A stretch of 64,000 bases of DNA from a virus (lineage: Duplodnaviria; Heunggongvirae; Uroviricota; Caudoviricetes), in IMG/VR virus record IMGVR_UViG_3300042295_001370, positions 69,673-133,672 of that record. One strand, given 5' to 3'. The notes beneath the pieces are model-generated. The model searched no databases, was not told the origin of the DNA, and saw only the letters and a list, made by a program, of their open reading frames with translations. The position numbers and the translations under genes are program-made. Within the stretch, counting starts at the first letter, position 1. Every line of letters starts with the position of its first letter. Positions 21,788 to 57,341 of this stretch are shown here, in pieces.

Positions 21788-23020
21788 TTAAGTGTCAAAA
21801 TAGTAAGGCAAAACTTCTTTGCTATGTTGATCAACAAAAAGTGCACCCAAACGACCGCCTTTGCTGCTACCACAATCTGTAACAAATGCCCGGCCGCCAC
21901 AAGAATTTGCTTTTTCCACAACGTTGTAACTGACACGATCAAGCCAATCATGCCCTACAACAACAGTATGATCAGCAGGTATGTTTTGAACCCAATTCCA
22001 GATACGGTTTGGATATCCATCATTCTTGGTCGGTGAAACAGTGTCTACCTCACCAAAATAGGCCATATTTGCACAAACACCTTGCAATCTGCGATCCTTG
22101 TTGGCCCACATGGCAGGTGTTGCTGCACCATGAGTAAACAAAAATTTTCCCACTGTTAGGTGGTTAAAACTCCAGTTTCTTAGTGCTGTCCAAGCTGCAA
22201 GAAACTTCTTTTTCCGCAAGTCATTCAAACTGTTGATTTCTCTTATAGTAGATAGATTTGACTCGCTAAGTTTGCCATTAAAGGTTTCACCCAAGTCGCT
22301 CCTAATCCAGCGATCAATTTTTCTTTCGTGATTTCCCCAAATCATAAGTGCTTGCCCGTCTCGAACAGTGTCATATGCAAGTTTCAAACATTTGAGATTA
22401 TTGGCGCCATAGTCCACAATATCTCCCAGCCACACTAGCTTTGCGTGTAACTGTTGTGCCATTTGCACTGCCTGCTGCATAGCTGGAAAATTGCCATGAA
22501 CATCGCCTACTGCTAAAATCCTTGCACTCTGCAATTCATTTGGAAATCCAACAGTGGTTTCGTCACCACACAGCACAACAGCTCGTTTATTATCGCCCTG
22601 TAACACCTGTGTGCGAGCATTTTTCCATATACTATAGCTTTTTCTCAAAGAGTCAAAGTCATAACAAGAACCAGAGTTTTGCTGTATTGTGCCCCATTCA
22701 AGGTCAAAAGGTTTGTAATAGACTTCCACACCATACTTTTCGGCAATATCAAGAAAAGTAAATCTGTCCTTGTCTTTTAGATTAGTGGAATCAACTACTG
22801 CACGTTGCCCGTTGGCGATACGAATATCAACTCTACGATAGAGTTCGTGCCAAATATTTGGCAAAATATCCACTGTTGAATTGTTGCCTGTCAACTCTTT
22901 CTTGATTGAAGAAAGGCTTATGATTTCATCAGCGTCAAACTGGTTTTGGGCCCATGTGCTTTTGCCACTCTTAGTGGGACCAATCAAAACTACTATACTA
23001 TGTAAGGATAACTTTTTCAT
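21788..23020 (-). CDS. polynucleotide kinase-phosphatase-like protein (P-loop kinase + calcineurin-like metallophosphoesterase)
   Basis: N-terminal Walker A (IGPTKSGKST). C-terminal metallophosphatase motifs GDVHGN / GDIVDYG / GNHE. This is the domain pair of bacterial Pnkp-type RNA end-healing enzymes. Confidence 0.55.
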   Translation of the reverse strand: MKKLSLHSIVVLIGPTKSGKSTWAQNQFDADEIISLSSIKKELTGNNSTVDILPNIWHELYRRVDIRIANGQRAVVDSTNLKDKDRFTFLDIAEKYGVEVYYKPFDLEWGTIQQNSGSCYDFDSLRKSYSIWKNARTQVLQGDNKRAVVLCGDETTVGFPNELQSARILAVGDVHGNFPAMQQAVQMAQQLHAKLVWLGDIVDYGANNLKCLKLAYDTVRDGQALMIWGNHERKIDRWIRSDLGETFNGKLSESNLSTIREINSLNDLRKKKFLAAWTALRNWSFNHLTVGKFLFTHGAATPAMWANKDRRLQGVCANMAYFGEVDTVSPTKNDGYPNRIWNWVQNIPADHTVVVGHDWLDRVSYNVVEKANSCGGRAFVTDCGSSKGGRLGALFVDQHSKEVLPYYFDT

Positions 23021-23049
23021 GCTTAACTATAGCATGAAACTTTTGGCTG

Positions 23050-23256
23050 TCAACGGAACCAGTCGGAGAAGTCAAACAAGTTTGTAATTACACCAGCAAA
23101 TCCAGTTACAATAGCCAAAAAACTGACCCCAAACACACCGCTTGAGGTCCATATACATCCATTTAACTGATATGCCCAGCTGGCAAGAAAACCACTAGCA
23201 GCAAAGGCGCACAACGCGCCTACATATGAAAGAAATATTACTGCTATTGTTTTCAT
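23050..23256 (-). CDS. small membrane protein (2 predicted TM helices)
   Basis: Hydrophobic 68-aa core (MKTIAVIFLSYVGALCAFAASGFLASWAY...). The ORF-track version (to 23373) would overlap the AAA gene. Confidence 0.3.
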   Translation of the reverse strand: MKTIAVIFLSYVGALCAFAASGFLASWAYQLNGCIWTSSGVFGVSFLAIVTGFAGVITNLFDFSDWFR

Positions 23257-23302
23257 TGCCTGCCTTGGTAATAGTTCCTTATTTATAGATTTCCTATGAT
23301 TT

Positions 23303-24403
23303 TCAAACCCGGAAACCAAATCCCATTGTAGGCGTAACTTCTGCTGTGGCAATATCGCGATTGAAAACTTCACTTAGTGTCCAATGCTCCTTACCTTTCC
23401 AGTTTTGCTGGGGTTCACCAGCAGACTCAGCAGCAAGGGCAGCCTCATTTGGACTCATGTTGCGGAACTCCACTGCACTGTAGCAACGCCCCTTGCGTAG
23501 CAAAGCTGGGTCCACCTTGTTTAGTTGGCTAATATTGGTAGTGAACACCATCTTCTTGCTGGCCACCTTCACAATGCCATCACTGACATTCAAGAACTTG
23601 CTCATGATCTTGTTCTGTTCACTTTCTCGATTGCTCAGCAGCAGGTCAGCATCCTCGATGATCATGATGTTGTGCTCATCATCAGCCAAAAAGTCAATGA
23701 AAAAGCGATCATCACGCAGGATGTCTTCATCGTAGCTGACGATCGCATTCATGCGCCGGCTACAAATGAGATGCTTGAGAAAGCTGGTTTTGCCAGTTCC
23801 AGGTGGCCCATAGAGGAGTAGCACTGTGCCTGTGCTAGTCAGGTAATCTTCAATGAAGGCATCAACACCTTGTGTGAACCAAGGATAAAAGCTGTTTTGA
23901 ATCTGGTTGTCCTGATCAACGTAGAGGCTGCGATAGTCCACCGAAGAACCATCCTTGTAATACCACGTGATTTTGGTAAAAGTGCGATCTTGGAACGTGT
24001 CTTCCACAGCAGTCAGCAGCTGGTTAACCCGGTCTGGAGTTCCATATGCCTCGATGCTGGCACGGTTCACACGAACGCTGCCTTCATCATACCCCCAACT
24101 GCGTCGGCTGTTTGCACTGCGCTGCTCACCAATAATGAACATACTGCTATTCTGGATCATCCAGTAGTCAGGATCTACTTGCACAAACTGCCAAGTGCCC
24201 TCTGCCTCAGGAAAAGTCTTGTTTAGGAGGCTTTCCATACCAGTGAACACGTCTACGATGTTGCGGCGCATTTCCAGCTTCACAGCTCGACACACTACCA
24301 TTGTCGCGCCGGTTTGCTGGCTGAGAAACTCCAACCGCATCCGGCTACACAGCCCATGGCCAAAATGATCTTCTCGAATGCCAAAATCTACATTTTCAAA
24401 CAT
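23303..24403 (-). CDS. AAA+ ATPase (classic AAA clade, BCS1-like architecture)
   Basis: Walker A LLYGPPGTGKTS, Walker B IIEDAD, and a second region of homology ALLRKGRC, after an approximately 190-aa N-terminal domain. Confidence 0.7.
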   Translation of the reverse strand: MFENVDFGIREDHFGHGLCSRMRLEFLSQQTGATMVVCRAVKLEMRRNIVDVFTGMESLLNKTFPEAEGTWQFVQVDPDYWMIQNSSMFIIGEQRSANSRRSWGYDEGSVRVNRASIEAYGTPDRVNQLLTAVEDTFQDRTFTKITWYYKDGSSVDYRSLYVDQDNQIQNSFYPWFTQGVDAFIEDYLTSTGTVLLLYGPPGTGKTSFLKHLICSRRMNAIVSYDEDILRDDRFFIDFLADDEHNIMIIEDADLLLSNRESEQNKIMSKFLNVSDGIVKVASKKMVFTTNISQLNKVDPALLRKGRCYSAVEFRNMSPNEAALAAESAGEPQQNWKGKEHWTLSEVFNRDIATAEVTPTMGFGFRV

Positions 24404-24431
24404 GATGCTTCCTGAGTGCAGTGTTGTCTTG

Positions 24432-24668: not shown

Positions 24669-24711
24669 GGCCTCGTGGATTTGACCAAGGGGTAGTGAGT
24701 TGAGGTCATGC

Positions 24712-25368
24712 TCAACGGGTTTGGTCACGCATTCCTCCAGCAGCCAACACAATCTCACACACATGGTTCAATCTCTCGATGTGACCATAGGCTGACCAAG
24801 GATCCACATCCACTGCTACTACGCCATGCATGTGCAACCCAATTATGTGGCTATTGATGCCTCCATCAGGTTGCACATCAAAAGCTTGGGCAACAGCTGA
24901 GCCAAGATCTGTGCTTTGCGCTTGTACTTTGCCCACAGTTGGGCCTACAGTTGTGTGGTTCTCAAGCTCAGGAAAATCACGTACAATCTGTTGTAGATCC
25001 ATACCAGCATACATTGCAGCCACAATGTGAGTGGGATGAAGATGCAACACAACACGATTTGAAGTAGGCGTGTTAACTTGTAGCCAATAGTGGAAGGGCA
25101 GTTCACCACTGGGACGCAAGCCAATGATTCGCTGTTGGTAAAGGTCATCAGCACGAGTCATCCTGCTCCATGCATCTGAACTCATCCGGTCTTCAGGAAA
25201 ATACAGCTTGATCATGCTCTCGCTGGTGAGAACCTGTTTGCGAACTCCTGTTGGTGTAATATACATGCAGTTTTGTACTGCTCGTCGCATGCTTACATTT
25301 CCGTCTCTTGTGGTGATCCAACCTCTCTCGTAGGCTGTGCGCATCACATCTGCCATAGTATCTAACAT
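24712..25368 (-). CDS. class II aldolase/adducin-family protein
   Basis: Motifs RDGNVSMR, ITPTGV, HLHPTHIVA and HMHGVVAVD match the FucA/AraD/MtnB fold. Confidence 0.6.
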   Translation of the reverse strand: MLDTMADVMRTAYERGWITTRDGNVSMRRAVQNCMYITPTGVRKQVLTSESMIKLYFPEDRMSSDAWSRMTRADDLYQQRIIGLRPSGELPFHYWLQVNTPTSNRVVLHLHPTHIVAAMYAGMDLQQIVRDFPELENHTTVGPTVGKVQAQSTDLGSAVAQAFDVQPDGGINSHIIGLHMHGVVAVDVDPWSAYGHIERLNHVCEIVLAAGGMRDQTR

Positions 25369-29273: not shown

Positions 29274-29525
29274 CTATCCCCACGTCAAGGTAAACAACAG
29301 GGCATCTTCTTGGCGTTTGAAGTCCCATGTGTTGTAGCGAAACTGCTCACATTTGCCAGAGGTGTTTTCTGCCAGCCAGTCGTCAATCTTTGACACAGTT
29401 GATGGCATGCCCGTCAGTAACTCACGCCAAGGATTGGGTACATTGGGCAACACCACGCGGTGCCATCCTCGGCGGGGTTTGATCCGTTGTGGCGTCTTAT
29501 TTCTGCGTGCCATCTGCACCTGCAT
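29274..29525 (-). CDS. LTW-family small protein (paralog)
   Basis: Ends ...EDALLFTLTWG. Confidence 0.4.
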   Translation of the reverse strand: MQVQMARRNKTPQRIKPRRGWHRVVLPNVPNPWRELLTGMPSTVSKIDDWLAENTSGKCEQFRYNTWDFKRQEDALLFTLTWG

Positions 29526-32346: not shown

Positions 32347-32535
32347 TTATTCACTTTGAGGATACCTTGTGTAATTCTGGGGCGGCTCTACCAAATGTGC
32401 CCATGTCAACAGGAACATAGCATGATCTTCCCTGCGTGTCAACCACCAACTGCAACGCCACGCAGTGATGCCACCTGCTCTAAAAAAAAGTTGTAGGTAG
32501 TGGCCATCCGCTGTCCCATACTGTCCCGCACTCAC
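32347..32535 (-). CDS. LTW-family small protein ('FLLTW-HLV' subfamily)
   Basis: Ends ...HAMFLLTWAHLVEPPQ... Confidence 0.4.
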   Translation of the reverse strand: MSAGQYGTADGHYLQLFFRAGGITAWRCSWWLTRREDHAMFLLTWAHLVEPPQNYTRYPQSE

Positions 32536-32615: not shown

Positions 32616-32870
32616 TCATTCACAACTTTCTGCCTCTTGGCTAGAGTCAACCAAATGACCCCAAGTCAGTAAAAACATGATGAGATCATCCTTGTGTTGA
32701 AAAGCCCAATCGCAAACATATACTCCACGCAAAAGATCTGAATTAGCCCAACCCATACACCAAGTCTGATACAAGCTTGTATCGCCCCACATGCGGCAGC
32801 ACCAGTTGTAAACTGGGATAAATTCTTCAAGTGAGTAAGCCATCACTGTCACAACATATGCATCACTCAT
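32616..32870 (-). CDS. LTW-family small protein ('FLLTW-HLV' subfamily)
   Basis: NWCCRMWGDT ... DDLIMFLLTWGHLV. Confidence 0.45.
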   Translation of the reverse strand: MSDAYVVTVMAYSLEEFIPVYNWCCRMWGDTSLYQTWCMGWANSDLLRGVYVCDWAFQHKDDLIMFLLTWGHLVDSSQEAESCE

Positions 32871-33412: not shown

Positions 33413-33530
33413 AGGTGTCCACCAGAGTTTTGATCTCTTGCTCAGCCTCTTCCAGCGTGGAGACTGTGCGCCAAGTGCCGTTGGGACTGCTCACTCGAAA
33501 CTTCACCGTGTCACCTTTGTAGGCCATCAT
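33336..33530 (-). CDS. hypothetical protein
   Basis: Start codon overlaps the ligase stop codon (ATGA). Confidence 0.35.
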   Translation of the reverse strand: MMAYKGDTVKFRVSSPNGTWRTVSTLEEAEQEIKTLVDTYGVAWAAVDRIETTRILVRQVKADE

Positions 33531-34744
33531 TCGTCTCCCACACTTTGCTGGCTCCACCGCGGCGCACGGAACAGTGAGCGTGCCTCGTCCACCCGGGTCT
33601 GCGTGCCAGTGCATTTGCGGATCACATCGCACACCAGCTCACGCCAGTCCACGTGGCCCTCACGGGCCCAGACCTTGAACACAGCACTACGCAGGTTGGG
33701 CTCAAGACCCGGTGCTGCCTCCAGTGCAAACCGCTTTCTATCGTCACCAAACTGCCGCCGGAGCTTGACATACTGGTCCTTCCATATGTAGGCAGTTTGC
33801 CCCACACCCGTCCAGAAGGCGTTCTCGTAGGCGTCGATGCGAGCCAGGTCCTCCACAGGCAGAAAGCTCTTGACGTCGTCCAGCTTTTCCGCCAGCATGA
33901 GGTCGATGAGGTTCTTCTCCTGCGTGAGAGCATCCTTGGCACGGTGGATACGCACATACCAGGCCGATTTCAACTTGGCCATATGTCCATCATCCCACCG
34001 GATGATCCACCCCTCCTCGCCTTCCAGCTCATGCGTCTCCCGAACGAGCTGCTCCATGCTAGCCACAGTACCAGGATAGGCCTTGACTAGATCCAGCTCA
34101 TACTCGGCCGCCAGTTCCTGCATCTGAGAGTAGGTGAGATACTCACCCGAGTTGATGTGACGCACAGCAGTCAGCACCAGTCGATCAACTGGATAATCAC
34201 ACACAATCTTTTGTTGACGAGTACACCACTCGAAACAGGCAGTGTATCCCTGCTCCAGTGTGTCTCGGATAAATCGGTCATAGTTGTCTCGAGTTGCCAC
34301 GAACGGCTCAACCTGTGCTGCTACAGCAGTGGGCCCCATCTTGGTTGCAAGACAGTAGCCCTTACCTAGAGGTAGAGCACGAATCATACTTCCATCCAAC
34401 TTCTCAAGGATGATGTGTGGCTGAGTGAGATCGATGTTTTCAATCAAAGTCTCGCGCCGTTCGCCCACGTTCCAAAACTTCTGAAATGCGCGGCTCACCA
34501 ACTTTCCATCAAGGCTGAACAGCAGCCCCCTACACTCCCGGCGGATAGCCTTGAGTCGAGTCTGCCGCTCGCGCATGCTGGCGCTGCCTCCAGCAGTATG
34601 GACCTCGGGGAACATGTCCGGGCCCATCTGAATGTAGTTGACCACAGTGCCCCAGGGCCGCTGGGCTACAATGAAGCCTTCCACACCCTGGACAGCTTCC
34701 AGCACTTGATCCAGGTGCGTGATCTCGGGAAACGTGTAGTGCAT
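33527..34744 (-). CDS. RNA ligase, Rnl1-like (nucleotidyltransferase KxDG family)
   Basis: Motif I 'IILEKLDGSMIRA' closely resembles T4 Rnl1 'TKEDGSLVS'. Size 405 aa. A GTTGACA-N16-TATACT promoter lies immediately upstream. Confidence 0.6.
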   Translation of the reverse strand: MHYTFPEITHLDQVLEAVQGVEGFIVAQRPWGTVVNYIQMGPDMFPEVHTAGGSASMRERQTRLKAIRRECRGLLFSLDGKLVSRAFQKFWNVGERRETLIENIDLTQPHIILEKLDGSMIRALPLGKGYCLATKMGPTAVAAQVEPFVATRDNYDRFIRDTLEQGYTACFEWCTRQQKIVCDYPVDRLVLTAVRHINSGEYLTYSQMQELAAEYELDLVKAYPGTVASMEQLVRETHELEGEEGWIIRWDDGHMAKLKSAWYVRIHRAKDALTQEKNLIDLMLAEKLDDVKSFLPVEDLARIDAYENAFWTGVGQTAYIWKDQYVKLRRQFGDDRKRFALEAAPGLEPNLRSAVFKVWAREGHVDWRELVCDVIRKCTGTQTRVDEARSLFRAPRWSQQSVGDE

Positions 34745-36116: not shown

Positions 36117-36842
36117 TTAAGCGGCTGCTTGCAGTGTGTCAACACTCTGCTTGTTACGCATACGCTCGTAGATGCGCCAGGGCCGACTGTCCACTTCAAA
36201 AGGGTTGCTGACCTTTTGTGAGAGGGCTTGCAGTGCCAGTTGACGGTCAACTTCGCGACGCATCCTCTTGGCTCGTTGGAAACCAGCCAGCTGCAATCCT
36301 GGCAGCATGTCTGAGTATTGGGCTTCCAGTGACTTGCACTGTTCGCGTCGCGTTTGAGTAGCAGTGGCTTGCACCTCGTGGTTGCGCACCAAATGAGTCA
36401 ACTGCTTGATGCGCTTGTTCTGCTCAGCAGCCTCTCGGCGCATCTTACGTTCAAAAGCCAGTGAGCGAAAGCTGCCAGTCTCAGGCGCGGGCCGACTCAT
36501 TTCCATAGCCTGCAGGAAATCTTCCCAGGGCGTGTTGCCTCGACGGTTGTTGCATCGGCCACACGCCACAGCCAAGTTGGTGATGTGGTCAGTGCCACCA
36601 CAACTGCGAGGAGTGATGTGCTCAATGGTGGCACTGTTCTTGAAGCCTTGTTCGCCACGCATCTCGCAGTGACACCAGCAGCAGCGCCAACGCTGCACCT
36701 CAGCTAGCCGTGTGCGATCATACGCCTTGCGAGCCAGTGCTCGAGCCCGGCGAGCTTGATCCTGATTGGGATATACCTCCAGCCAATAGGGCAAGGTTCT
36801 CATCTGGGGATCATTTACGATGCTGGGCACATCAATTCGCAT
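36117..36842 (-). CDS. HNH endonuclease
   Basis: CCWCHCEMRGEQ...IEHITPRSCGGTDHITNLAVACGRCNNRRGN. Start moved to MRIDVPS because a GTTGACA-N17-TATGTT promoter and an AAGGAGA ribosome-binding site lie inside the ORF-track's extended ORF. Confidence 0.7.
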   Translation of the reverse strand: MRIDVPSIVNDPQMRTLPYWLEVYPNQDQARRARALARKAYDRTRLAEVQRWRCCWCHCEMRGEQGFKNSATIEHITPRSCGGTDHITNLAVACGRCNNRRGNTPWEDFLQAMEMSRPAPETGSFRSLAFERKMRREAAEQNKRIKQLTHLVRNHEVQATATQTRREQCKSLEAQYSDMLPGLQLAGFQRAKRMRREVDRQLALQALSQKVSNPFEVDSRPWRIYERMRNKQSVDTLQAAA

Positions 36843-36891
36843 ATCCGTCTCCTTTGCAACACCCACAACATACAGAGTCTGCACATCCGTG

Positions 36892-37200
36892 TCAACCACT
36901 ATGTCCTGTGTTGTTTTGCCAAACCAGCTGAAAATGCGTCACCAGTTCCCTAGTGGGGAAAGCGATATACTGGTATCCAAAAAGCTGTGTATATGCCCAA
37001 ACGCACTCACCTTGTGGTGGATCACCAATTCCAGTGTCACCAGGTCCTTGTTGGCGTAGCCAATCCAAGATTTCGTATTGTTGGCGGTAGTATTCCTCGC
37101 CAAGTGTAACAGAGCAGCAGAAAAGATCTTTGGGAAACAAAAGCAGCGCATTGTGGAAGACTCTGTCTTCTGTCACTTGGCTATCACAGTGAAATTCCAT
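36892..37200 (-). CDS. Trp-rich small protein, LTW-family-like
   Basis: Ends ...LVTHFQLVWQNNTGHSG. Confidence 0.3.
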   Translation of the reverse strand: MEFHCDSQVTEDRVFHNALLLFPKDLFCCSVTLGEEYYRQQYEILDWLRQQGPGDTGIGDPPQGECVWAYTQLFGYQYIAFPTRELVTHFQLVWQNNTGHSG

Positions 37201-38833: not shown

Positions 38834-39316
38834 TTAGGGATAGAGTTTGAGATGGCCTAGAATGTCTGAAACTTCGGGCTTGTTGCGATCCACAAGGCAC
38901 CAAATGCAAGTGGTCTCTTGGCGAGTCATCAGCACACGCCCATCATCCATGGTTTTGATGACAGCTGCCTTGCCATTAGCTGCAACAAGATCAGCTACCT
39001 CTTGATTTTCCACAAAAAATGGGTAGCTGGGGTCGACGACTGACCCCTTGACAGTGAGGTGGTATTCCCAACCATAAGTGCATCTCAGACCATGAAGCTG
39101 GTCCATTGTGGCACCCAGCACAATTGTGGTGTTGAAGTAGTAGGCACCTTGTGAGACACCGTCGGCAACATACTGTTGAACTAGTGGATGATCTGCAAAT
39201 AGGCTCATCATCTGGGTTCCAGCATGATGTACTTGTGCAGCCAGCTTTCCTGGGTTCATACTGGGCAGATCAGTTCGGGCCAGCACGTAGACAGCTAGAT
39301 CAGGCGTGGCTTCCAT
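38834..39316 (-). CDS. peptidyl-tRNA hydrolase, PTH2 family
   Basis: LARTDLPSMNPGKLAAQVHHAG... and the C-terminal ...ILGHLKLYP correspond to the PTH2 signatures (VRTDLxMxKGKxAAQxxHA ... GHLKLY). Start moved downstream of its promoter. Confidence 0.7.
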   Translation of the reverse strand: MEATPDLAVYVLARTDLPSMNPGKLAAQVHHAGTQMMSLFADHPLVQQYVADGVSQGAYYFNTTIVLGATMDQLHGLRCTYGWEYHLTVKGSVVDPSYPFFVENQEVADLVAANGKAAVIKTMDDGRVLMTRQETTCIWCLVDRNKPEVSDILGHLKLYP

Positions 39317-40800: not shown

Positions 40801-40953
40801 TATGATTTGTTTTTGTTCGGGAGTGTCCTGTTGGTGCATGGCGCTGGCACCCAACTCCATGTACTGTTTAATCAAACCTTGCGCCACAGGGTTGTCAGCT
40901 ACCCGATAGCCCTTGAGTGTGCCCCATTTCAAGAGAATATAGTTTTCGGTCAT
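40675..40953 (-). CDS. possible chimeric ORF: AT-rich phage-like 5' half fused to GC-rich 3' half
   Basis: The N-terminal 50 codons (MTENYILLKWGTLKGY...) have phage composition and the remainder is GC-rich. It may be the 5' part of the LTW-family gene that was disrupted by the island. Confidence 0.25.
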   Translation of the reverse strand: MTENYILLKWGTLKGYRVADNPVAQGLIKQYMELGASAMHQQDTPEQKQIICELLPALACPRRAFPNPYDPTGLLHWIATQEPVILGRDPAG

Positions 40954-41469: not shown

Positions 41470-42681
41470 TCAGTTGAACTCCGTTGCCTCGCCGTTCTTC
41501 ACTCGGCGGAGCAGATACGCCGGAGAGATGAATTTGCAGATTTTCCTACCGTGCAGGGGATGCTCGGTGGGAACCAGGCTGCGCACCACCACACCTTCCC
41601 GCACATTGGTGCCACCCACCGTTGTGACACCGTCTCTCACAGCCTCAATGGCAGTTTGGTCAAAGGGGCCAGTGTAGAGGGTAGGTACACAGGGCAGGTC
41701 CTTTGCCCAGTAGGCCACGGCATCGGGACTTAGCCACTCCCGCCCGATCCGCATGTCGAACACCCGGAACGTGGGCTTAGTGGTGCCGTAGTCGAGGTCC
41801 TGCACGCCCTTGCCGAAAACTTCTCCCAGGATAGCCACCGGATGAGCACCGCCGTCCACCTTGCTCATCCTGTGGAGGAGCCCGGCGAGGTCATGGTCGG
41901 CTAGCAGTGTGCCAAGTGCCCGCACATAGAGGTTGTTGGCGTTGGCTTCGTTGTTCTTGAACACCAAACCCTGACCGCCTAGTCCCTTGCTGCTGACAGT
42001 GATGCTGCGGTAGCCTGCATGGTCGGGGAACATCTCGGGATGGTCCATGCCTGGGAAGTACTGGATGATGGTACAAGATCCATGAATTTTTTCTTGGGCC
42101 ACCACCACCTCACCAGGTTCGAAGATGTCAGGCACGCTCTCCCAACGCTGAAAATCGTAGGTAAGAGCAGCCTCAGCAACACTGGCAACTTCACCAGACA
42201 TCGCAGCGGGAATGGGCGGCTCCCACCTGGTGATGCCCAAGATTGCAGCAGCATCCTCGCCTAGCTTGACTGGATATTCAAGACTGTCTTTGCCTACTAC
42301 ATGTACATCCGTCGCCGACCCAAAATCAGCAGAAAGGCAATCGTCATCACCATATGCAATGAGCCCATACAGCACACCTTCGCTGAAAATACCACGCAGC
42401 TTGAGTGGCTTCACACGGTTGCCATCACTGCCTGCCAGCACACCCTTACCAGCGTCTTCGTTCCAAAATCCCATGTCCTTGAGCAGCCATTCAGGCAGCA
42501 CCGAGGCTGAGGGAATGTATACGACCCAGTCACCGGGCTTGTAGCGCGGGCTACCATCCTCTAGTTTGTTTGCGATGCAGAGATAACCGAGGCCTTCAAG
42601 GCGCACAAGAGAAAGGCGATCCGCATTCGGATGTTCTTCGACTGCGGCCACACGCACCACAGGGCAACTGAACTTGCTCAT
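41470..42681 (-). CDS. RNA ligase, Rnl2-like nucleotidyltransferase with N-terminal tRNA-binding (Myf/EMAP-like OB) domain
   Basis: N-terminus VVRVAAVEEHPNADRLSLVRLEGLGY matches the 'HPNADKL' tRNA-binding OB-fold signature. Motif I 'VVAQEKIHGSCTI' matches T4 Rnl2 'EKIHGTN'. Confidence 0.6.
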   Translation of the reverse strand: MSKFSCPVVRVAAVEEHPNADRLSLVRLEGLGYLCIANKLEDGSPRYKPGDWVVYIPSASVLPEWLLKDMGFWNEDAGKGVLAGSDGNRVKPLKLRGIFSEGVLYGLIAYGDDDCLSADFGSATDVHVVGKDSLEYPVKLGEDAAAILGITRWEPPIPAAMSGEVASVAEAALTYDFQRWESVPDIFEPGEVVVAQEKIHGSCTIIQYFPGMDHPEMFPDHAGYRSITVSSKGLGGQGLVFKNNEANANNLYVRALGTLLADHDLAGLLHRMSKVDGGAHPVAILGEVFGKGVQDLDYGTTKPTFRVFDMRIGREWLSPDAVAYWAKDLPCVPTLYTGPFDQTAIEAVRDGVTTVGGTNVREGVVVRSLVPTEHPLHGRKICKFISPAYLLRRVKNGEATEFN

Positions 42682-43695: not shown

Positions 43696-44067
43696 CTAAA
43701 AGGGCGTAATTGTGCTGGCAAAAGCCTCCACAACGTCCTTGGCCTCTTTCAGGCCCAGAGCCGTTTCAGTTCGCAGCTCTTTGATGGCATTGATCTTCAT
43801 GCCAGCACGAACATAGTCTTCCACAGACTTGCTGATGGTGACCCCATACATGGTGGGACGTTCAGTATTTGTGAGGCGTCGCATAGCTTCCCGACTGGTT
43901 TCGTCCAGGATCAAGATGTCGCGTGCATCTCGTGACAGTGCGTAGATGTCGTGTGCCCGAGCTTGCCCTTCTCGAGCACCTTCGTGGCTTAGGTGGATGA
44001 TCTCGTTCACCAGGTGCACTAGGCGCTTGAAGTCATTGTCAGAAAGGTTTCCGAGATCATCGGTCAT
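43696..44067 (-). CDS. protein with ribosomal protein bL12 (L7/L12) C-terminal-domain-like segment
   Basis: C-terminal '[25 protein letters not shown]' compares with E. coli bL12 '[25 protein letters not shown]'. Length is 123 aa against 121 aa for bL12. The last ~25 residues of a canonical CTD are absent. Confidence 0.5.
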   Translation of the reverse strand: [123 protein letters not shown]

Positions 44068-48093: not shown

Positions 48094-48390
48094 TCAATTT
48101 GTGGAGCGTTCAGTATTTTTGATGAGTTGAGACATGTCTATTCCATTAACAGACAGCAGACTATCAAACCTCAGACTGCGCCAATTTCCCTTATCTAGAT
48201 CCCAGAGGACCACTAGATTCAAGTTTTGCCCCTTTGACTTTCTATTGGTTGATACTTGCGTCGTGGATACTTGCGGCACAAGTTGTTCAGATAATGTGGC
48301 CTTCATTTTTCGGTGAGAGCCATCTCGTTTCTCAAACACTAGGTTGACTTCACCAGACAACAGTTTTTCAACAAATTGATCTCGTGTCAT
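48094..48390 (-). CDS. hypothetical protein
   Basis: 98-aa ORF. Confidence 0.4.
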   Translation of the reverse strand: MTRDQFVEKLLSGEVNLVFEKRDGSHRKMKATLSEQLVPQVSTTQVSTNRKSKGQNLNLVVLWDLDKGNWRSLRFDSLLSVNGIDMSQLIKNTERSTN

Positions 48391-48812
48391 TAAATTTCCT
48401 TCTCTACTTTTTTCAATACTTTTTGCATATCTGGATTGACTAAGTTTGCAGCTTCTTGCCAGGTGACTACTTTAAATTGATCCAATTCTTTGACATCACG
48501 ACCTTTGGAGTCTTTAAACGTGCTCTTGCAGACTAGGGAAGTGGGGTCTGGCATTTGTTCGACCTTCCAAAGATACAGCACTAGATCCTTTTTTGGCTTA
48601 TATAGGAACACGCCCAGAGGCGTAAGGGCTGAGGTGTCTTCCACTACCAAACCAGTTTCTTCATTTAGTTCCCTCAGTGCAGCTTCAAGAAAGCTTTCTC
48701 CAGGGTTCATGCCTCCTTTAGGTAGGTCCCACCATTTACCACGTGTTACATGCCCAACAACCAACTTGTTCCCGTCAGTTATCACCACACCACAACTTGT
48801 TGATTTACCCAT
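48390..48812 (-). CDS. Nudix hydrolase
   Basis: Nudix box GGMNPGESFLEAALRELNEETGL (Gx5Ex7REUxEExGU). Start set at MGKSTS, downstream of its promoter. Confidence 0.7.
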   Translation of the reverse strand: MGKSTSCGVVITDGNKLVVGHVTRGKWWDLPKGGMNPGESFLEAALRELNEETGLVVEDTSALTPLGVFLYKPKKDLVLYLWKVEQMPDPTSLVCKSTFKDSKGRDVKELDQFKVVTWQEAANLVNPDMQKVLKKVEKEI

Positions 48813-48835
48813 TGTAAGATTCTCCATATCCTTCC

Positions 48836-48864
48836 AGTGTAGGACAGACGACATCTTTGTCAAC
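48836..48864 (-). promoter_or_regulatory. sigma70-like promoter GTTGACA-N17-TACACT
   Basis: Reverse complement reads GTTGACAaagatgtcgtctgtccTACACTggaaggatatggagaatcttacaATG. Confidence 0.45.
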
Positions 48865-48905
48865 AAGTTATTTGTGATTTTCCACAACGTCAACTACTAT
48901 GGATT

Positions 48906-49634
48906 ATGATTCCCACGATCTATTGCCTAACTTTTCGCAATCTCAGCAAAGCAGAACGCATGCGACACCGGTTTGAGCAAGTGGGGCTAGACATCTCTCT
49001 TGTGGAGAGTGTTGCTGCATCGCACCCCACACTGGCACCAGATAACTGGCAAAAAGAAAGGATCAAAAAAGAAAACAAATGGAGCGAGCTGGCTTGGAGT
49101 TGCATGGCTGGTCACATGAAGATTCTCAAAAAGTTTATCTATTCAGGTGACGAAATTTGTATAGTAGTGGAGGATGATGTTATGATCCGCCGAGACTTTG
49201 CTGAAGAATTGCCTTGTGTGGTAGCCAATTTCCAGAAGCTTGATTTGGATATATTGATGCTGGGATACCTAAGGCCTGAAACCATCTCTAGAGTAGAGGC
49301 CACTATGCCAATTATCAGTCAGCCCTACACGTATCACAGCTTTGAATTCAATGTTTATGGTACTCAAATGTATATGATACGCCGACGTCATGCTCAATGG
49401 GCTGTAGACACATTTGAGGACCCAGTTCACCAATGGAAAACTTTGATTGATCCTCATTATAGCATTTCAAACAATGCTGACTGGACTATCACCAAAAGCG
49501 GCCGCAGGGCCCTTATCTACCCAATGTTAGCTGTAGAAGAGAAGGGTGGTGGCAAAGCTTATAGAGATGACACTCAAACTCAGTGGCATGATCTCTGTCA
49601 CAATGCCAACTACAACCCTGATGTTCACATCTGA
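48906..49634 (+). CDS. glycosyltransferase family 25 (LPS/LOS beta-1,4-galactosyltransferase-like)
   Basis: N-terminus MIPTIYCLTFRNLSKAERMRH... is typical of GT25 (Lic2A/LgtB). It has a DD acidic pair (VVEDDVMI) and is about 240 aa. It is the only plus-strand gene in this block. Confidence 0.65.
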   Translation: MIPTIYCLTFRNLSKAERMRHRFEQVGLDISLVESVAASHPTLAPDNWQKERIKKENKWSELAWSCMAGHMKILKKFIYSGDEICIVVEDDVMIRRDFAEELPCVVANFQKLDLDILMLGYLRPETISRVEATMPIISQPYTYHSFEFNVYGTQMYMIRRRHAQWAVDTFEDPVHQWKTLIDPHYSISNNADWTITKSGRRALIYPMLAVEEKGGGKAYRDDTQTQWHDLCHNANYNPDVHI

Positions 49635-50787: not shown

Positions 50788-51018
50788 TCAACACCATGTG
50801 AGCTTGAACAAGAGCATGTCTTCTTCCCTCTCAAACCAAATGTTACCAGCTCGTGTCCAATAATACCGTTCCCCAGGTGCTGCGTCAAGCCAACTAAACA
50901 TCTTGTCTCCGTTAACGGCGGAGAAATTCACTTGGCAGAGATGCCATTGGTCCAGCATGCTGTAGTCACGTCTCTGGTTGTGACCTTTGGCGAGATAGTC
51001 GTTGTCGATATCGTGCAC
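50788..51018 (-). CDS. LTW-family small protein ('EREEDM' subfamily)
   Basis: ...YYWTRAGNIWFEREEDMLLFKLTWC. Confidence 0.45.
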   Translation of the reverse strand: MHDIDNDYLAKGHNQRRDYSMLDQWHLCQVNFSAVNGDKMFSWLDAAPGERYYWTRAGNIWFEREEDMLLFKLTWC

Positions 51019-51021: not shown

Positions 51022-51243
51022 CTATGACCACGTGAGCGTGAACAAGATCATGTCTTCTTCTCTCTCAAACCATACTCGAGTTCCGCCCTCCCAAAAGCGG
51101 CCACCATCTGTTGTTTTGAGCCACTGGAGGATGGTATGTCGATCAGGCCCAACAAATTGGCGAATAGAACAGCTATGCCATTCCTGGATTTTAGTGTGGT
51201 TAGTGTGGTAGTCGCTGGGGTATTGTTGATCAATATCGATCAT
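51022..51243 (-). CDS. LTW-family small protein ('EREEDM' subfamily)
   Basis: ...RFWEGGTRVWFEREEDMILFTLTWS. Confidence 0.45.
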   Translation of the reverse strand: MIDIDQQYPSDYHTNHTKIQEWHSCSIRQFVGPDRHTILQWLKTTDGGRFWEGGTRVWFEREEDMILFTLTWS

Positions 51244-51259: not shown

Positions 51260-51469
51260 TCAACACCATGTGAGCTGGAACAGGATCATGTCTTCTTCTC
51301 GTTCAAAATAAATGGAGATGACACCAACCCAATAGCGTCCGCCATCTGTAGTGTTGAGCCAGTTGTAAACGGATTTTTGATCAGGCAACGGACTGCTCAG
51401 TCGACAACTGTGCCAGCCTTTGAGGATATCAAACCCAAGGTTGATTAGTTCTCTTTCAACGTCTGTCAT
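51260..51469 (-). CDS. LTW-family small protein ('EREEDM' subfamily)
   Basis: ...RYWVGVISIYFEREEDMILFQLTWC. Confidence 0.45.
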   Translation of the reverse strand: MTDVERELINLGFDILKGWHSCRLSSPLPDQKSVYNWLNTTDGGRYWVGVISIYFEREEDMILFQLTWC

Positions 51470-51475: not shown

Positions 51476-51733
51476 CTAGCACCAAGTGAGAGAGAACAGC
51501 ACCATGTCATCTTCATGCCGGAACCAAATCCACATCTCCTGCTCTCCAGCAGTGCTTGTTTCAATCTGACATGCCCACAATGCGTCTTTGTGGAGTCTAC
51601 TTGGTGAGCCCCAACGCTGTTTAGTCCAGCTGCAAATTTCCGTGTAGTGCGAAAAATTACTCACGTTGACGACTCGCACAAAGTAGGGAAATTGCCGGCG
51701 GTTCACCGCAGTATCTGGAGTGAGCTTCCTCAC
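51476..51733 (-). CDS. LTW-family small protein ('EREEDM' subfamily)
   Basis: ...MWIWFRHEDDMVLFSLTWC. Confidence 0.45.
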   Translation of the reverse strand: MRKLTPDTAVNRRQFPYFVRVVNVSNFSHYTEICSWTKQRWGSPSRLHKDALWACQIETSTAGEQEMWIWFRHEDDMVLFSLTWC

Positions 51734-52876: not shown

Positions 52877-52884
52877 CCTAGACC

Positions 52885-53772
52885 TTATCGATATCTATCC
52901 AGCACAGTTTGCAGCTCATTTACCAGTTGATCAACACCAGTTTCTCGCTTGACACCGGTGGTGAGAGGGCCATAGTGCATTGACAAACAGTCAAGAAGTA
53001 GATGTTTGATCCTCTTCTCATCTGGCTTATCTCGCAACGTGCTGTTGGCATGTAGTGTCTCTAGAGATTTTTCCTTGACATCAAACCAACTGTCCAGCTG
53101 CTCTAGTGTCCACTCACCTCGCCGAATGCTCTTGAGCACCTCGCTGTTGCGCTCAATGTCAAGGTCATGCTCTACCAGGATCTGCTCGCATTGCAGCATG
53201 AGCCTCACTACATGCACTCCAAACTTCAGATCCCATCCGTGTTCAGCAATAGTGGCAGCTCTTTTGGGATTGCTGCTGTTGGTTTTGTTGCGAATTTTTG
53301 AAATTTGTGAAAATGCGTATCCCCGAAGTTTTCCCATAGCTCCTTTGTGGAGGAACTCTTTCCTATGCTCTCTCACATGCTCTGCGATTTTGGTGCTGTG
53401 GAGAATGCAGCGGCGGGGAAGAAAGAGAACGTCCAAAACATTTGGATTATTTTCCATCGCCAGTTGCATAAAATCAACGATATTATAAATAGAAAAGTCC
53501 AACTCTTTCCGTTGATCCGGCAGCTGAATGTGATGCTCGCTCCACACTCGAAACCGCTGTTCCTGTGTGCCAAAGCCATACACCCTGCCGCCGTCGGTGA
53601 AGGGGAACACAATCTCACGGGGCGGGATGCAGAAGCCAAAGCAGTCCATGTCACTCGTGTCGTTGCTGACACCATAGGCAGCACTACCAGCATAGCCCAG
53701 AAATTGAGTGTTGTCGGGCAACCACTTGGGCGGGTGTATGAGTTTTCGGTCAACTAATGTGTGCAGCAGCAT
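52885..53772 (-). CDS. Pol-beta superfamily nucleotidyltransferase (RlaP-like)
   Basis: N-terminal hG[GS]...[DE]h[DE]h nucleotidyltransferase signature (LGYAGSAAYGVSNDTSDMDCFGF). About 290 aa with an alpha-helical C-terminal half, like the RNA-ligase-associated Polbeta nucleotidyltransferases (RlaP) predicted in RNA-repair operons (Burroughs & Aravind). Confidence 0.55.
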   Translation of the reverse strand: MLLHTLVDRKLIHPPKWLPDNTQFLGYAGSAAYGVSNDTSDMDCFGFCIPPREIVFPFTDGGRVYGFGTQEQRFRVWSEHHIQLPDQRKELDFSIYNIVDFMQLAMENNPNVLDVLFLPRRCILHSTKIAEHVREHRKEFLHKGAMGKLRGYAFSQISKIRNKTNSSNPKRAATIAEHGWDLKFGVHVVRLMLQCEQILVEHDLDIERNSEVLKSIRRGEWTLEQLDSWFDVKEKSLETLHANSTLRDKPDEKRIKHLLLDCLSMHYGPLTTGVKRETGVDQLVNELQTVLDRYR

Positions 53773-54630: not shown

Positions 54631-54642
54631 GAGATATTTAAG

Positions 54643-55889: not shown

Positions 55890-56204
55890 TTATAGTATAT
55901 CTACAAACTCTATTCGATTCCTGAATGCACTGTTGAAATAGAGTGCATCATCAAAATAGATTGCCAATATAAAACTCACATTGGGATAGATCCCTCTGTA
56001 ATACAAACTCAAGTGTTCCTCATTACTGTTCAACATCAGCCAGGTGTAGAGATCAGGCCAATGTGTCTGGAAAAACCGCATTCTCTCAGTTTCATCTTTA
56101 GTAACTTGTGTTGTTTCATTCTCATCAAGATCATCAGAGAGAGTATAGAAAAAACCATTGGCAAAACGCCGAGTGGCACGAATGGGATCAAGCTGCCTCA
56201 TCAT
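55890..56204 (-). CDS. small protein, 'FPDLYTW' paralog family member
   Basis: MMRQLD... ...FFQTHWPDLYTWLMLNSNEEHLSLYY. Confidence 0.4.
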   Translation of the reverse strand: MMRQLDPIRATRRFANGFFYTLSDDLDENETTQVTKDETERMRFFQTHWPDLYTWLMLNSNEEHLSLYYRGIYPNVSFILAIYFDDALYFNSAFRNRIEFVDIL

Positions 56205-56520
56205 CTTCTCCCCAAGCAGCTTGAAATCTCTCAAAGGCCCTTTCTCCCAACAGCAGCTCAAATTGCCAATTGGTGCTTGTGTCCCAGGCAGTCACTAAGT
56301 CCCACTCTTCACCATCTAAATTCAAGATACACCAGGTATAGAGATCAGGGAAATTTTCTTGAAACAACAGAAGTCTTGAGTGTGCGTTCCTTGTAGCCAG
56401 GACTTTTTCATGTTTGGTGAGATTGTTAGCCAATGGATACACAAACACACCATCTCCTCGACTATAAGGGGGGTTGTAGTCAAACGGTGTCAAGGATCTG
56501 ATCCTCCCAGGCAGCTTCAA
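56188..56520 (-). CDS. small protein, 'FPDLYTW' paralog family member
   Basis: ...LLFQENFPDLYTWCILNLDGEEWDLVTAWD. Confidence 0.4.
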   Translation of the reverse strand: MKLPGRIRSLTPFDYNPPYSRGDGVFVYPLANNLTKHEKVLATRNAHSRLLLFQENFPDLYTWCILNLDGEEWDLVTAWDTSTNWQFELLLGERAFERFQAAWGEDDEAA

Positions 56521-56782
56521 ACAGAGGTCTCACATTATAGACCAGCAACAAATCAAGGGTTTCAAAAGGTATCTTGTAGCCTATATCCCACTCATAATGC
56601 GGCACATTCAACTCTAGCCAACACCAAAGTTCAGGAAAATAGTGTTGTAGCCACCCTTTGCGACCACCATACTGGTGGAAAATGTTCTCCAAATGATGGT
56701 TGAGGAAATTGTCGGCTAATGGGTAGCGCCAGTGCCCACCAGCATCAATGCACTGCCATCGGTCAAGCTTTCTCATCATCAC
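56480..56782 (-). CDS. small protein, 'FPDLYTW' paralog family member
   Basis: MMMRKLD... ...LQHYFPELWCWLELNVPHYEWDIGY. Confidence 0.4.
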   Translation of the reverse strand: MMMRKLDRWQCIDAGGHWRYPLADNFLNHHLENIFHQYGGRKGWLQHYFPELWCWLELNVPHYEWDIGYKIPFETLDLLLVYNVRPLFEAAWEDQILDTV

Positions 56783-57341
56783 TTCCCATCAAATCCTTCA
56801 GCATGAGTTTGAAGGTCTCAGCCTGCTCGAGCGAATCTGCAAGAGCGTTGTGAGTGTGCGGCAACTTGCTAAACCAATGTCGTGGCCAATTCCTTTTCAC
56901 ACTCTCACGGTAAGGCAGCCGCAGCATGCACATGGCCATGGTCTTCATGTCTAACACACTGAAACTGAACACACTTTTCCCTGTGAAACGCATGAGATAG
57001 TAATACACCCAAGTGAAGTCAAATCCACTGGGCATGCACACTGCCACTGGACTACCAGGAAAACTTGCCACCCACTGACTGAAATGGGGCATAGCCTCCT
57101 CTGGGCTTTGACACCACACTCGCGTCTCATCATAATATTTTTGATGTTGTGCCCAGAAATCCATTGTTTTGGGGTCTGGTTTGGCCTCAGGCAACAGATT
57201 CAAGTTCACATAGTAGGTGTCAAGATTGTTGCCCTGTTCATCAAAAGCCACACAACCCAAGCTCAACATACTATTGAGTCCTGGACAGGGTCCATCGGTT
57301 TCGATGTCTATGGAAAAATAAGCTGTTGTTTTCTTGCTCAT
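56763..57341 (-). CDS. DEDDh 3'-5' exonuclease (DnaQ/RNase T-like)
   Basis: Exo I motif FSIDIETDG and Exo III motif H..ALADS, with the correct spacing for the DEDDh fold. Confidence 0.7.
   Translation of the reverse strand: MSKKTTAYFSIDIETDGPCPGLNSMLSLGCVAFDEQGNNLDTYYVNLNLLPEAKPDPKTMDFWAQHQKYYDETRVWCQSPEEAMPHFSQWVASFPGSPVAVCMPSGFDFTWVYYYLMRFTGKSVFSFSVLDMKTMAMCMLRLPYRESVKRNWPRHWFSKLPHTHNALADSLEQAETFKLMLKDLMGSDDEKA

Follow-up and report, generated by a model that had tools for sequence, protein, structure and literature searches.

Why should a bacteriophage encode, in one arm of its genome, two RNA ligases, a protein that joins a P-loop kinase to a metallophosphatase, a peptidyl-tRNA hydrolase and a nucleotidyltransferase, and do these proteins act together on broken RNA? 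The question is raised by a stretch of 64,000 nucleotides (hereafter the window), covering positions 69,673 to 133,672 of the IMG/VR virus record IMGVR_UViG_3300042295_001370, in which a preliminary description had recognised a dispersed toolkit of seven genes for RNA repair and translation rescue. The reading we favour, and hold to be rather probable, is that five of the seven, encoding the kinase-phosphatase, the ligases Rnl1 and Rnl5, the nucleotidyltransferase RlaP and the peptidyl-tRNA hydrolase PTH2, are an RNA-repair and ribosome-rescue complement of the kind typical of group 2.2 jumbo phages. These five fall into families whose roles in RNA end-healing, end-filling and sealing and in peptidyl-tRNA release are established by experiment or comparison, and they are recurrently linked in other phages; the DEDDh exonuclease and the Nudix hydrolase that had been counted with them are not demonstrably part of the RNA-repair set.

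All seven open reading frames (ORFs) were recovered on the minus strand where they had first been placed, every domain call exceeded the Pfam gathering score, and the PHROG assignments agreed. The start initially given for the Nudix gene, 48812, is an internal ATG of the ORF listed here. Amino acid (aa) positions are those of the window proteins, and NTase denotes a nucleotidyltransferase domain.

21788..23020, minus strand: kinase-phosphatase, 410 aa (Pfam AAA_33, 50.9 bits, and Metallophos, 50.5 bits)
33527..34744, minus strand: Rnl1 (Pfam RNA_lig_T4_1, 92 bits against a cut-off of 28.3, 6.7e-26; T4_Rnl1_C, 32.3 bits, 1.3e-7)
38834..39316, minus strand: PTH2 (Pfam, 28.6 bits against a cut-off of 23; partial match, aa 21-64, 44 residues)
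41470..42681, minus strand: Rnl5, the second ligase, with an N-terminal OB domain and a C-terminal NTase domain (Pfam RNA_ligase, 68.5 bits)
48390..48893, minus strand: Nudix hydrolase (Pfam NUDIX, 57.2 bits, 2.3e-15; full Nudix box at aa 60-81)
52885..53772, minus strand: RlaP, a Pol-beta nucleotidyltransferase (Pfam RlaP, PF10127, 61.5 bits against a cut-off of 23, 1.3e-16; PHROG 388, 7e-46)
56763..57341, minus strand: DEDDh 3'-5' exonuclease (Pfam Rv2179c-like, 34.7 bits, 1.9e-8)

Within a jumbo phage genome, the window belongs to the early/accessory arm. Its left 18.7 kb carries structural genes on the plus strand, and to the right of ~18.7 kb the minus strand is nearly filled with ~100 tightly packed ORFs; there the seven genes are spread across 35.5 kb among ~75 other small ORFs, separated by gaps of 1-10.5 kb and 2-31 ORFs. 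The baseplate wedge protein has its counterparts, at 39-40% identity, in Sinorhizobium phage Phosso (469 kb) and Agrobacterium phage Atu_ph07 (490 kb), followed by Rak2-like jumbo myoviruses, and megablast with 42 kb of the window found no DNA-level relative among GenBank phages. Because of this wedge identity and the lack of a GenBank DNA match, we place the source, as far as sequence comparison allows, as an uncultured jumbo myovirus, a distant member (~40% aa identity) of the Atu_ph07/Phosso lineage, which Iyer et al. (2021) class as group 2.2. An alphaproteobacterium is the probable host.

The candidate repair enzymes

The presence of an Rnl1-like ligase was borne out. The protein matches T4 Rnl1 among PDB structures (2c5u, 3.8e-26) and PHROG 562 (3e-65), and keeps K115 within KLDGS, EGWII244-248 and KLKS257-260 intact. 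At aa 270-359 it carries the all-helical C-terminal tRNA-specificity domain (PF20819, T4_Rnl1_C; 32.3 bits against a cut-off of 27). Its score lies under the NCBIfam equivalog cut-off (PF09511/TIGR02308; 133.7 vs 242.25 bits), and no other family was matched. We regard it as a true, divergent homologue of T4 Rnl1 with the tRNA-specificity domain. Orthologues are present in Phosso (35% identity) and Atu_ph07 (29%), located upstream of the kinase-phosphatase gene.

The second ligase had been described as Rnl2-like with a tRNA-binding OB domain, and of this description the OB domain stands while the family has to be changed. The protein passes the NCBIfam cut-off of TIGR02306, RNA_lig_DRB0094 (169.5 vs 151.15 bits, profile positions 7-341 of 341). 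When its AlphaFold model (predicted local distance difference test, pLDDT, 84.5, with a low-confidence loop at aa 111-124) was searched with Foldseek, the top 13 matches were all NgrRnl, aligned over the full length (E ~1e-19, template modelling score 0.73 on the target). T4 Rnl2 aligns at 1e-8 on the NTase domain alone (~260 columns) and the extra domain of the window protein is the N-terminal OB, so that an Rnl2 identity was ruled out. The OB domain, which reaches 26.3 bits with PHA02142, slightly under the cut-off of 27, separately matches PheRS-beta, MetRS-C and Trbp-like domains in Foldseek and in this resembles tRNA-binding domains. The motifs HPNADRL17-23, K198-IHG (with the motif I lysine), EGVVVR362-367 and KICKF380-384 are present. 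Profile and predicted fold both identify the second ligase as a member of the Rnl5 (DraRnl/NgrRnl) family without a C-terminal appendage. It shares with NgrRnl and DraRnl the order of an N-terminal OB and a C-terminal NTase domain, and differs from them in its low identity (~20%), in being phage-encoded and in a linker ~60 residues longer, which includes the low-confidence loop. NgrRnl seals nicks having RNA as the 3'-OH strand (PMC4408790). The closest cultured homologues of the window protein are found in giant phages of Caulobacter and Brevundimonas (36-39%). As a separate observation, the C-terminal end of Rnl5 is partly duplicated in a near-identical relative (contig L088): a second copy of aa 372-403, with 81% identity, stands at 1678-1773, ~420 nt downstream of the complete gene, and homologous DNA also lies downstream of Rnl5 in the window.

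For PTH2 and RlaP, phmmer searches against PDB sequences gave no matches, and PTH2 was therefore assessed at the level of its family. The family profile matches PTH2 structures in the PDB (1xty, 4e-6; 1rlk, 3e-5; Bit1, 6e-4), and the top 10 Foldseek matches of the AlphaFold (AF2) model (pLDDT 93) are all PTH2 enzymes, which upholds the original call. The ATG start at 39316 is backed by homologues of ~160 aa, the family occurring on contigs up to 485 kb. The motifs GK..AQ..HA and D(PSY) are conserved, with K24 and D95 (160-aa numbering) invariant or nearly so. In its fold, its N-terminal GK..AQ..HA motif and its conserved Asp region the protein resembles archaeal and eukaryotic PTH2, such as S. 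solfataricus Pth2 and human Bit1/PTRH2. It differs from them in length, 160 as against ~115 aa, and in an inserted beta-hairpin/helix segment of ~45 residues relative to the canonical 115-aa PTH2; it is also distinct from the PTH2 of Atu_ph07 and Phosso, which is canonical, with 110 aa. We consider it a divergent PTH2-type enzyme and, from fold and motifs, a predicted peptidyl-tRNA hydrolase, for which the insertion and an NCBIfam score far under the equivalog cut-off (19.9 vs 126 bits) may leave room for an altered substrate.

The nucleotidyltransferase, predicted at the outset to be of the Pol-beta type that acts with RNA ligases, proved to be an RlaP with its motif intact (GS29-30 ... D41-M-D43). 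It is 50% identical to a protein of Caulobacter phage CcrBL9 and 46% to one of Rhizobium phage RHph_I1_18. Enzymes of this family add 1-2 nucleoside monophosphates to damaged RNA 3' ends and are needed to restore aminoacylation of over-damaged tRNA (PMC12776372). CcrColossus gp172 was at first discounted as an RlaP, phmmer having found no similarity to the window protein; by Pfam it is an RlaP of another subfamily. In L002, a related contig of 493 kb, RlaP is split (7819-9692): its N-terminal 196 aa and C-terminal 160 aa are separated or overlapped by an ORF of 292 aa without a Pfam match, perhaps a mobile element or intron that interrupts the gene.

The call of a P-loop kinase joined to a metallophosphatase was likewise upheld. 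The top NCBIfam match is TIGR04075, bacter_Pnkp (4e-28), with PrpE and ApaH as secondary matches, and among PDB structures the kinase (4mde, 2e-7) and phosphatase (4j6o, 1e-4) of Clostridium thermocellum Pnkp (CthPnkp) precede lambda phosphatase (2e-3). T4 Pnk (1ly1) gives a marginal match, 3e-3, to the kinase domain only. We assign the protein, on its sequence, to the bacterial (C. thermocellum) Pnkp type without the ligase domain, and not to the T4 type with a HAD phosphatase. The neighbouring families that might have claimed these proteins were not the nearest ones: bacterial Pnkp lies closer to the kinase-phosphatase than protein phosphatases do, and both ligases fall into RNA-ligase families and not among DNA ligases or capping enzymes. 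The score stays under the curated TIGR04075 cut-off (98.2 vs 750 bits), and the ligase (adenylyltransferase) domain is absent. Like CthPnkp, the window protein begins with a P-loop kinase fold, after which comes a binuclear metallophosphoesterase resembling lambda phosphatase; it has 410 aa where CthPnkp has ~870 with a C-terminal ligase, so that a ligase would have to be supplied in trans by Rnl1 or Rnl5. Neither Hen1 nor another methyltransferase partner was matched in any window ORF. As a closest model, Pnkp1-Rnl-Hen1 was rejected, Pnkp1 being a homologue of T4 Pnkp (HAD). The phosphatase motifs GDVHG172-176, GDIVDYG199-205, GNHE229-232, H297 and GHD356-358 are invariant across 37 homologues, and with them the metal ligands D173, H175, D200, N230, H231, H297 and H357. 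The kinase keeps its P-loop (GPTKSGKST14-22) with the lysine K20, as well as the equivalent of Thr80 (T79). An IMG/VR scan with the single kinase-phosphatase protein gave no match, and its relatives were found by alignment-based scans. PADLOC returned nothing for the kinase-phosphatase, RlaP, the SPFH protein described below or the ORFs of unknown function.

For the two remaining genes, the domain calls were confirmed and the proposed place in the toolkit was not. In the exonuclease, the motifs DIETD12-16, D108 and H164..D169 are intact. Its sole solved relative is PDB 7t2s (2.3e-13, aa 7-181), which is E. coli Cap18, a DEDDh exonuclease associated with the cyclic-oligonucleotide-based antiphage signalling system (CBASS) (PMC12345164); the PADLOC exonuclease "Effector" model PDLC00753 also matches (3.4e-28, positions 1-179 of 184), and around the phage-encoded gene there is neither a CBASS cyclase nor an effector. 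Phosso and Atu_ph07 are the only cultured phages in which it was found, there ~0.5-0.8 kb from the baseplate-wedge gene and 35-51 kb from the kinase-phosphatase, and none of 165 toolkit-centred loci contained it. These traits mark it as a Cap18-like core gene of the clade, and nothing in them speaks for membership in RNA repair. The Nudix protein matches PDB structures generically (RppH, 4e-6; MutT, 5e-6), the similarity being confined to the Nudix-box region; it stays under the RppH equivalog cut-off (33.5 vs 139 bits), and MutT scores equally. Nudix proteins ~50% identical to it are encoded directly downstream of Rnl5 in the closely related contigs L089, L090, L091 and L104, and the Rnl1-PTH2-Pnkp cluster of Atu_ph07 carries a different Nudix. 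The linkage to Rnl5 is thus lineage-restricted, weak and at most suggestive. Nudix domains of jumbo phages have been assigned to ADP-ribose/NAD processing (Iyer et al., 2021, PMC7824862).

Gene order in related phages

Neighbours were counted within ±10 kb of a gene, in IMG/VR loci that are not phylogenetically independent. Two genes beside the kinase-phosphatase, in the same block, enter into these counts.

21178..21759, minus strand: HNH endonuclease, directly downstream of the kinase-phosphatase (Pfam HNH_5, 5.5e-16)
20202..20918, minus strand: w20202, a 238-aa protein (PHROG 15894, phrog_15894, 4e-22; no Pfam match)

In Atu_ph07, 5.5 kb hold, in this order, Rnl1 (gp261), three small ORFs, a Nudix gene (gp257), PTH2 (gp256, Pfam 59 bits), two small ORFs, the kinase-phosphatase (gp253) and HNH. 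In Phosso, Rnl1 is followed by genes for cysteinyl-tRNA synthetase, a tRNA and a seryl-tRNA synthetase fragment, and further on by PTH2, two ORFs, the kinase-phosphatase and HNH. Contig L002 carries an RNA ligase, an L12 gene and, further on, RlaP, the kinase-phosphatase and HNH within 7.5 kb, RlaP lying 2 kb from the kinase-phosphatase. The IMG/VR contig 3300027741_000107 has Rnl5, Rnl1, an AAA gene, the kinase-phosphatase, HNH and ThyX in ~13 kb, in the window's order. Outside the lineage, RHph_I1_18 encodes a PTH2-like protein, a homing endonuclease, RlaP, a small ORF and a metallophosphoesterase in a row beside a tRNA array, and in CcrColossus RlaP (Pfam, 224 bits) lies 1.4 kb upstream of Rnl5, near tRNAs. 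RlaP, which is 10 kb from Rnl5 in the window, is near RNA-repair genes in L002, CcrColossus, L011 and L092.

Around the full-length kinase-phosphatase (43 loci), the neighbours were HNH (38), w20202 (38), ThyX (25), Rnl1 (15), canonical PTH2 (10) and RlaP (1); Rnl5, the window-type PTH2, Nudix, the exonuclease and L12 were not among them. Around Rnl5 (40 loci) we counted Rnl1 in 8, the window-type PTH2 in 5, the window-type Nudix in 5, RlaP in 2 and the exonuclease in none. PHROG 8238, an "RNA ligase" profile of 737 positions, aligns with the kinase-phosphatase over positions 3-310 and with Rnl1 over 457-686, from which it follows that a kinase-phosphatase and an Rnl1-like ligase are fused in some phages. 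The counts support a core of Rnl1, PTH2 and kinase-phosphatase, with Rnl5 and RlaP attached more loosely. They do not prove functional coupling, because the loci are not independent and the kinase-phosphatase sits in a conserved block.

The HNH gene stands directly 3' of the fusion protein in 38 of the 43 loci and likewise in Phosso, Atu_ph07, L001 and L002, and w20202 is near the kinase-phosphatase in 38 of 43 fusion loci and in 26 of 37 phosphatase-only loci. Both are kept with it across 30-90% identity, and in L008/L009 HNH is better conserved than the kinase-phosphatase (90% vs 70%). It looks like a conserved neighbour or partner and not like a sporadic homing element.

In relatives the core genes occupy no more than 5-13 kb, so that their spread over 35 kb in the window is secondary, derived from a compact Rnl1-PTH2-kinase-phosphatase cluster; many small ORFs and foreign inserts have accumulated between the core genes of the window phage. 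One such insert lies between PTH2 and Rnl5.

39659-40801, minus strand: NAD-dependent epimerase/dehydratase (70% GC, and 0.84 GC at third codon positions, GC3, in a genome of ~43% GC)

The epimerase is 84% identical (aa) to a gene of an Acetobacterales metagenome-assembled genome and 62-68% to genes of Rhodospirillales, Acidisoma, Azospirillum and Elioraea. We read it as a very recent horizontal insertion, because the segment of ~1.3 kb that contains it (39493-40793) is missing from the 87%-identical phage contig IMGVR_UViG_3300042894_005510, in which PTH2 is ~1.1 kb from Rnl5; its relatives also offer a clue to an alphaproteobacterial host.

A putative repair pathway and its competitors

Sequence analysis shows the identities of the genes, the conservation of folds and motifs, and the linkage. 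For the five proteins we infer substrates and a role in counter-defence that would run as follows. An anticodon nuclease or ribotoxin of the host or of a competitor would cut tRNA or rRNA and so create ends with a 2',3'-cyclic phosphate and a 5'-OH. The CthPnkp-type metallophosphoesterase domain would strip the cyclic or 3' phosphate, and RlaP would restore one or two nucleotides lost at the 3' end. Rnl1, with its tRNA-specific C-domain, would seal breaks in the anticodon loop, and Rnl5, with its tRNA-binding-like OB domain, would seal nicks in base-paired RNA. PTH2 would release the nascent chain that is still bound to cut or dropped-off peptidyl-tRNA, making tRNA and ribosome available for recycling.

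That several genes jointly counter tRNA-targeting defences, as the preliminary description suggested, is an idea already published for the same phage group: Iyer, Anantharaman, Krishnan, Burroughs and Aravind (2021, Viruses 13:63; PMC7824862) gave the same complement and the counter-defence rationale for jumbo phages, Atu_ph07 included. The window phage belongs to the lineage they treated and shares its Rnl1, second ATP-dependent ligase, polynucleotide kinase, calcineurin-like phosphatase, RlaP and PTH2, as well as the rationale, which is to undo tRNA cleavage and rescue jammed ribosomes. Their list also has HAD phosphatases, calcineurin-like ones "in a small number", the CCA-adding enzyme and Thg1 beside RlaP and PTH2 (PMC7824862). 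The window departs from the group 2.2 complement in its kinase, which lacks the general base, and in the unusual dispersal of its genes. Three refinements can be added. The survey names Rnl1, Rnl2 and RtcB, whereas the second ligase of this lineage is an Rnl5 with a tRNA-binding-like OB domain, from a family of which only the Deinococcus and Naegleria members have been characterised to date. The calcineurin-type kinase-phosphatase forms a large jumbo-phage family in which the phosphatase half is invariant and the kinase half is decaying. The dispersed layout can be traced to a compact Rnl1-PTH2-kinase-phosphatase cluster. The genes offer candidates, open to experiment, for the means by which phages resist tRNA-targeting immunity, and the current picture is left unchanged.

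Compared with T4, the likeness lies in an Rnl1 homologue that includes the tRNA-specificity domain, in RlaP and in the logic of healing before sealing. The T4 phosphatase is of the DxDxT (HAD) type and that of the window phage is calcineurin-type; the second T4 ligase is Rnl2, with a C-terminal helical domain that nick sealing requires, and that of the window is Rnl5, with its N-terminal OB; and T4 has no PTH2. T4 also has Rnl2, the Nudix enzyme NudE and the DEDDh exonuclease DexA. With T4 NrdC.11 being an RlaP as well (PMC12776372), the statement that the window carries a considerably more elaborate set than T4 was too strong.

Several observations weigh against the five genes forming a working repair pathway, and the most serious concern the kinase. 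CthPnk needs Lys21, the general base Asp38 and Arg41, each of which is essential by alanine substitution (PMC3902929). In the window kinase Asp38 is replaced by Ser37 and Arg41 by Lys40. Asp or Glu occupies the general-base position in 23 of 37 homologues, and the sublineage of the window is not among these. In the alignment of 37 homologues, ~10 family members have lost the P-loop wholly. Because the Asp38 and Arg41 equivalents are replaced and the P-loop is lost in these members, the kinase half of the family is under relaxed constraint, in contrast to the invariant phosphatase half. With both the general-base Asp and its partner Arg replaced, the window copy is a doubtful candidate for the 5'-kinase step, and the protein is probably a phosphatase whose kinase has been compromised or repurposed. 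The "end-healing enzyme" of the preliminary description thus survives in its phosphatase, the motifs of which are intact, more than in its kinase. The 5'-phosphorylation step of heal-and-seal is not accounted for inside the window; either another kinase encoded beyond the window supplies the 5'-phosphate, or the kinase domain now has a different role. In the phosphatase itself, the motif GDxxDRG reads GDIVDYG throughout the family, a further departure from CthPnkp.

Other points on the same side concern partners and gene order. ARAGORN and Rfam found no tRNA genes or structured RNAs in the window, and among 83 small ORFs and all larger ones of the window Pfam detected no Hen1, RtcB, RtcA, 2H, Thg1 or CCA-adding enzyme. 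RlaP linkage is scarce (1/43 kinase-phosphatase loci, 2/40 Rnl5 loci), and the window-type PTH2 is almost without toolkit neighbours in 42 loci. The kinase-phosphatase sits in a deeply conserved syntenic block with HNH, w20202, ThyX and a VWA-metallopeptidase, so that its adjacency to other genes may be inherited gene order. T4 Rnl1, moreover, has a second, non-RNA role in tail-fibre attachment, with which the label of PHROG 562 agrees.

Of the competing explanations, the one that survives best, which we nevertheless consider rather unlikely, is that there is no single system, and that seven independent accessory genes share the ~39-kb accessory arm of a very large genome. Rnl1 would then serve tail-fibre attachment, the phosphatase would be a protein phosphatase or Ap4A hydrolase, Nudix would act on ADP-ribose or NAD and the exonuclease in DNA metabolism, and PTH2 and a bL12-motif protein would boost translation. 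The wide gaps between the genes fit this explanation, as do the PHROG labels "NinI-like Ser/Thr phosphatase" and "tail fiber attachment catalyst", the secondary PrpE/ApaH matches of the phosphatase, and the exonuclease and window-type PTH2, which lack consistent toolkit linkage. Composition also points to different histories: GC3 is 0.38-0.39 in the structural genes, and 0.36 in the kinase-phosphatase (native composition), 0.44 in Nudix, 0.46 in PTH2, 0.54 in RlaP, 0.62 in Rnl5 and 0.66 in Rnl1 (atypical). The nearest cultured homologues are divided in the same sense, those of the kinase-phosphatase, Rnl1 and exonuclease being in Atu_ph07/Phosso and those of Rnl5, RlaP and PTH2 in Caulobacter, Brevundimonas and Rhizobium phages. 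What speaks against independence is that the same families are compactly clustered in Atu_ph07, Phosso, L002, RHph_I1_18 and CcrColossus, and that Rnl1 and canonical PTH2 lie ≤10 kb from the kinase-phosphatase in 35% and 23% of loci, against a chance expectation of ~5% for a single gene placed at random in a genome of 400 kb. The existence of a fused kinase-phosphatase-ligase family (PHROG 8238), and a top profile match to bacterial Pnkp and not to a protein phosphatase, argue in the same direction.

The substitutions in the kinase leave a narrower, distinctly unlikely alternative, namely that the protein of this sublineage is no longer a polynucleotide kinase. Its NTP-binding P-loop and intact phosphatase would form an uncharacterised module with HNH and w20202, for example an NTP-regulated eraser of RNA 2',3'-cyclic or 3'-phosphate ends or signals, or a nuclease-coupled end processor. 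Rnl5, the insertion-bearing PTH2 and the bL12-motif protein would make up a separately acquired arm, acting on ribosome-bound cleaved peptidyl-tRNA.

We give a small chance to the idea that the kinase-phosphatase acts on DNA or nucleotides, in a module with HNH, w20202 and ThyX for DNA-end processing or nucleotide salvage during host-DNA degradation. CthPnk phosphorylates DNA 5'-OH ends in vitro, DNA oligonucleotides having been used (PMC3902929). ThyA and DHFR are encoded nearby in L002, and the linkage of HNH (38/43), w20202 (38/43) and ThyX (25/43) exceeds that of any RNA-repair gene. HNH nucleases, however, produce 5'-phosphate and 3'-OH ends, which require no healing. The acceptor-site residues for any polynucleotide substrate are gone from the window kinase, canonical PTH2 and Rnl1 rank next among the neighbours, and HNH domains have been reported fused to phage RNA ligases (PMC7824862).

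No better placed is the proposal that the set serves the phage's own RNA metabolism, by maturing or splicing phage tRNAs or mending damage by phage RNases for host shut-off: in relatives these genes do adjoin arrays of tRNAs and genes for aminoacyl-tRNA synthetases, and group 2.2 jumbo phages average ~18 tRNAs (PMC7824862). In the window neither tRNA genes nor introns were detected. To our knowledge, the sole experimentally established phage precedent, T4 Pnkp and Rnl1 repairing tRNA-Lys against PrrC, is one of counter-defence, as the favoured reading of a repair and rescue complement would have it.

Other genes of the accessory arm

One possibly translation-related gene was absent from the preliminary description; the structural genes of the left arm are given with it.

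43696..44067, minus strand: bL12-motif ORF, 123 aa (Pfam Ribosomal_L12, 2.1e-7)
4155-16208, plus strand: 4,017-aa virion protein (phrog_10938, "virion structural protein", bit score 1397), with a head-decoration-like segment
Left arm, plus strand: gp25-like baseplate protein, 1,126-aa baseplate wedge protein, and tail-fibre protein with an S74 chaperone domain

The bL12-motif ORF has only the C-terminal elongation-factor-binding helix motif (25 residues), of which 15/25 are identical to E. coli bL12 residues 66-90. In L002 a Ribosomal_L12-domain ORF lies 0.3 kb from the RNA ligase, and the bL12-motif ORF was not found near Rnl5 in 80 other loci. It is possibly a translation-related accessory protein, its membership in the toolkit being uncertain; phage-encoded bL12 domains are already known (PMC6375957). 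The 4,017-aa virion ORF has orthologues in L001 (3,958 aa) and Phosso.

The minus-strand gene at 58937-60199 encodes a DUF2201 metallopeptidase and VWA protein, orthologous to the MoxR ATPase partner that is adjacent to MoxR in Phosso and Atu_ph07, so that the MoxR/VWA-metallopeptidase pair noted for group 2.2 is also represented in the window. No MoxR orthologue adjoins it there; the AAA protein at 23303-24403 (minus strand) is of a different family, kept in closer relatives only. A role of the MoxR/VWA genes in RNA repair was rejected, since the review treats them as a chaperone pair (PMC7824862) and the window AAA protein is not a MoxR orthologue. Next to the VWA-metallopeptidase gene, at 57882-58913, a homing-endonuclease-like gene with four copies of the NUMOD3 repeat stands on the plus strand among minus-strand genes, and a second HNH gene is found at 36117-36899, between Rnl1 and PTH2.

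The minus strand further encodes an SPFH/Band-7 protein (37765-38685) and a class II aldolase/adducin-domain protein (24712-25368) that is 91% identical in L001, and the plus strand a family-25 glycosyltransferase (48906-49634). Among the small ORFs, Pfam matches to WYL_2 (8.5e-15) and the Gp23 major capsid protein (1.3e-6) were obtained, their source ORFs not being among the ten candidates that were rescanned. Finally, a family of paralogous minus-strand ORFs of 62-85 aa is scattered over the arm (51022-51243, 50788-51018, 51260-51469, 51476-51733, 32616-32870, 32347-32535 and 29274-29525), all of them related to a 99-aa ORF of L002 that has the RNA ligase on one side and the L12 gene on the other.

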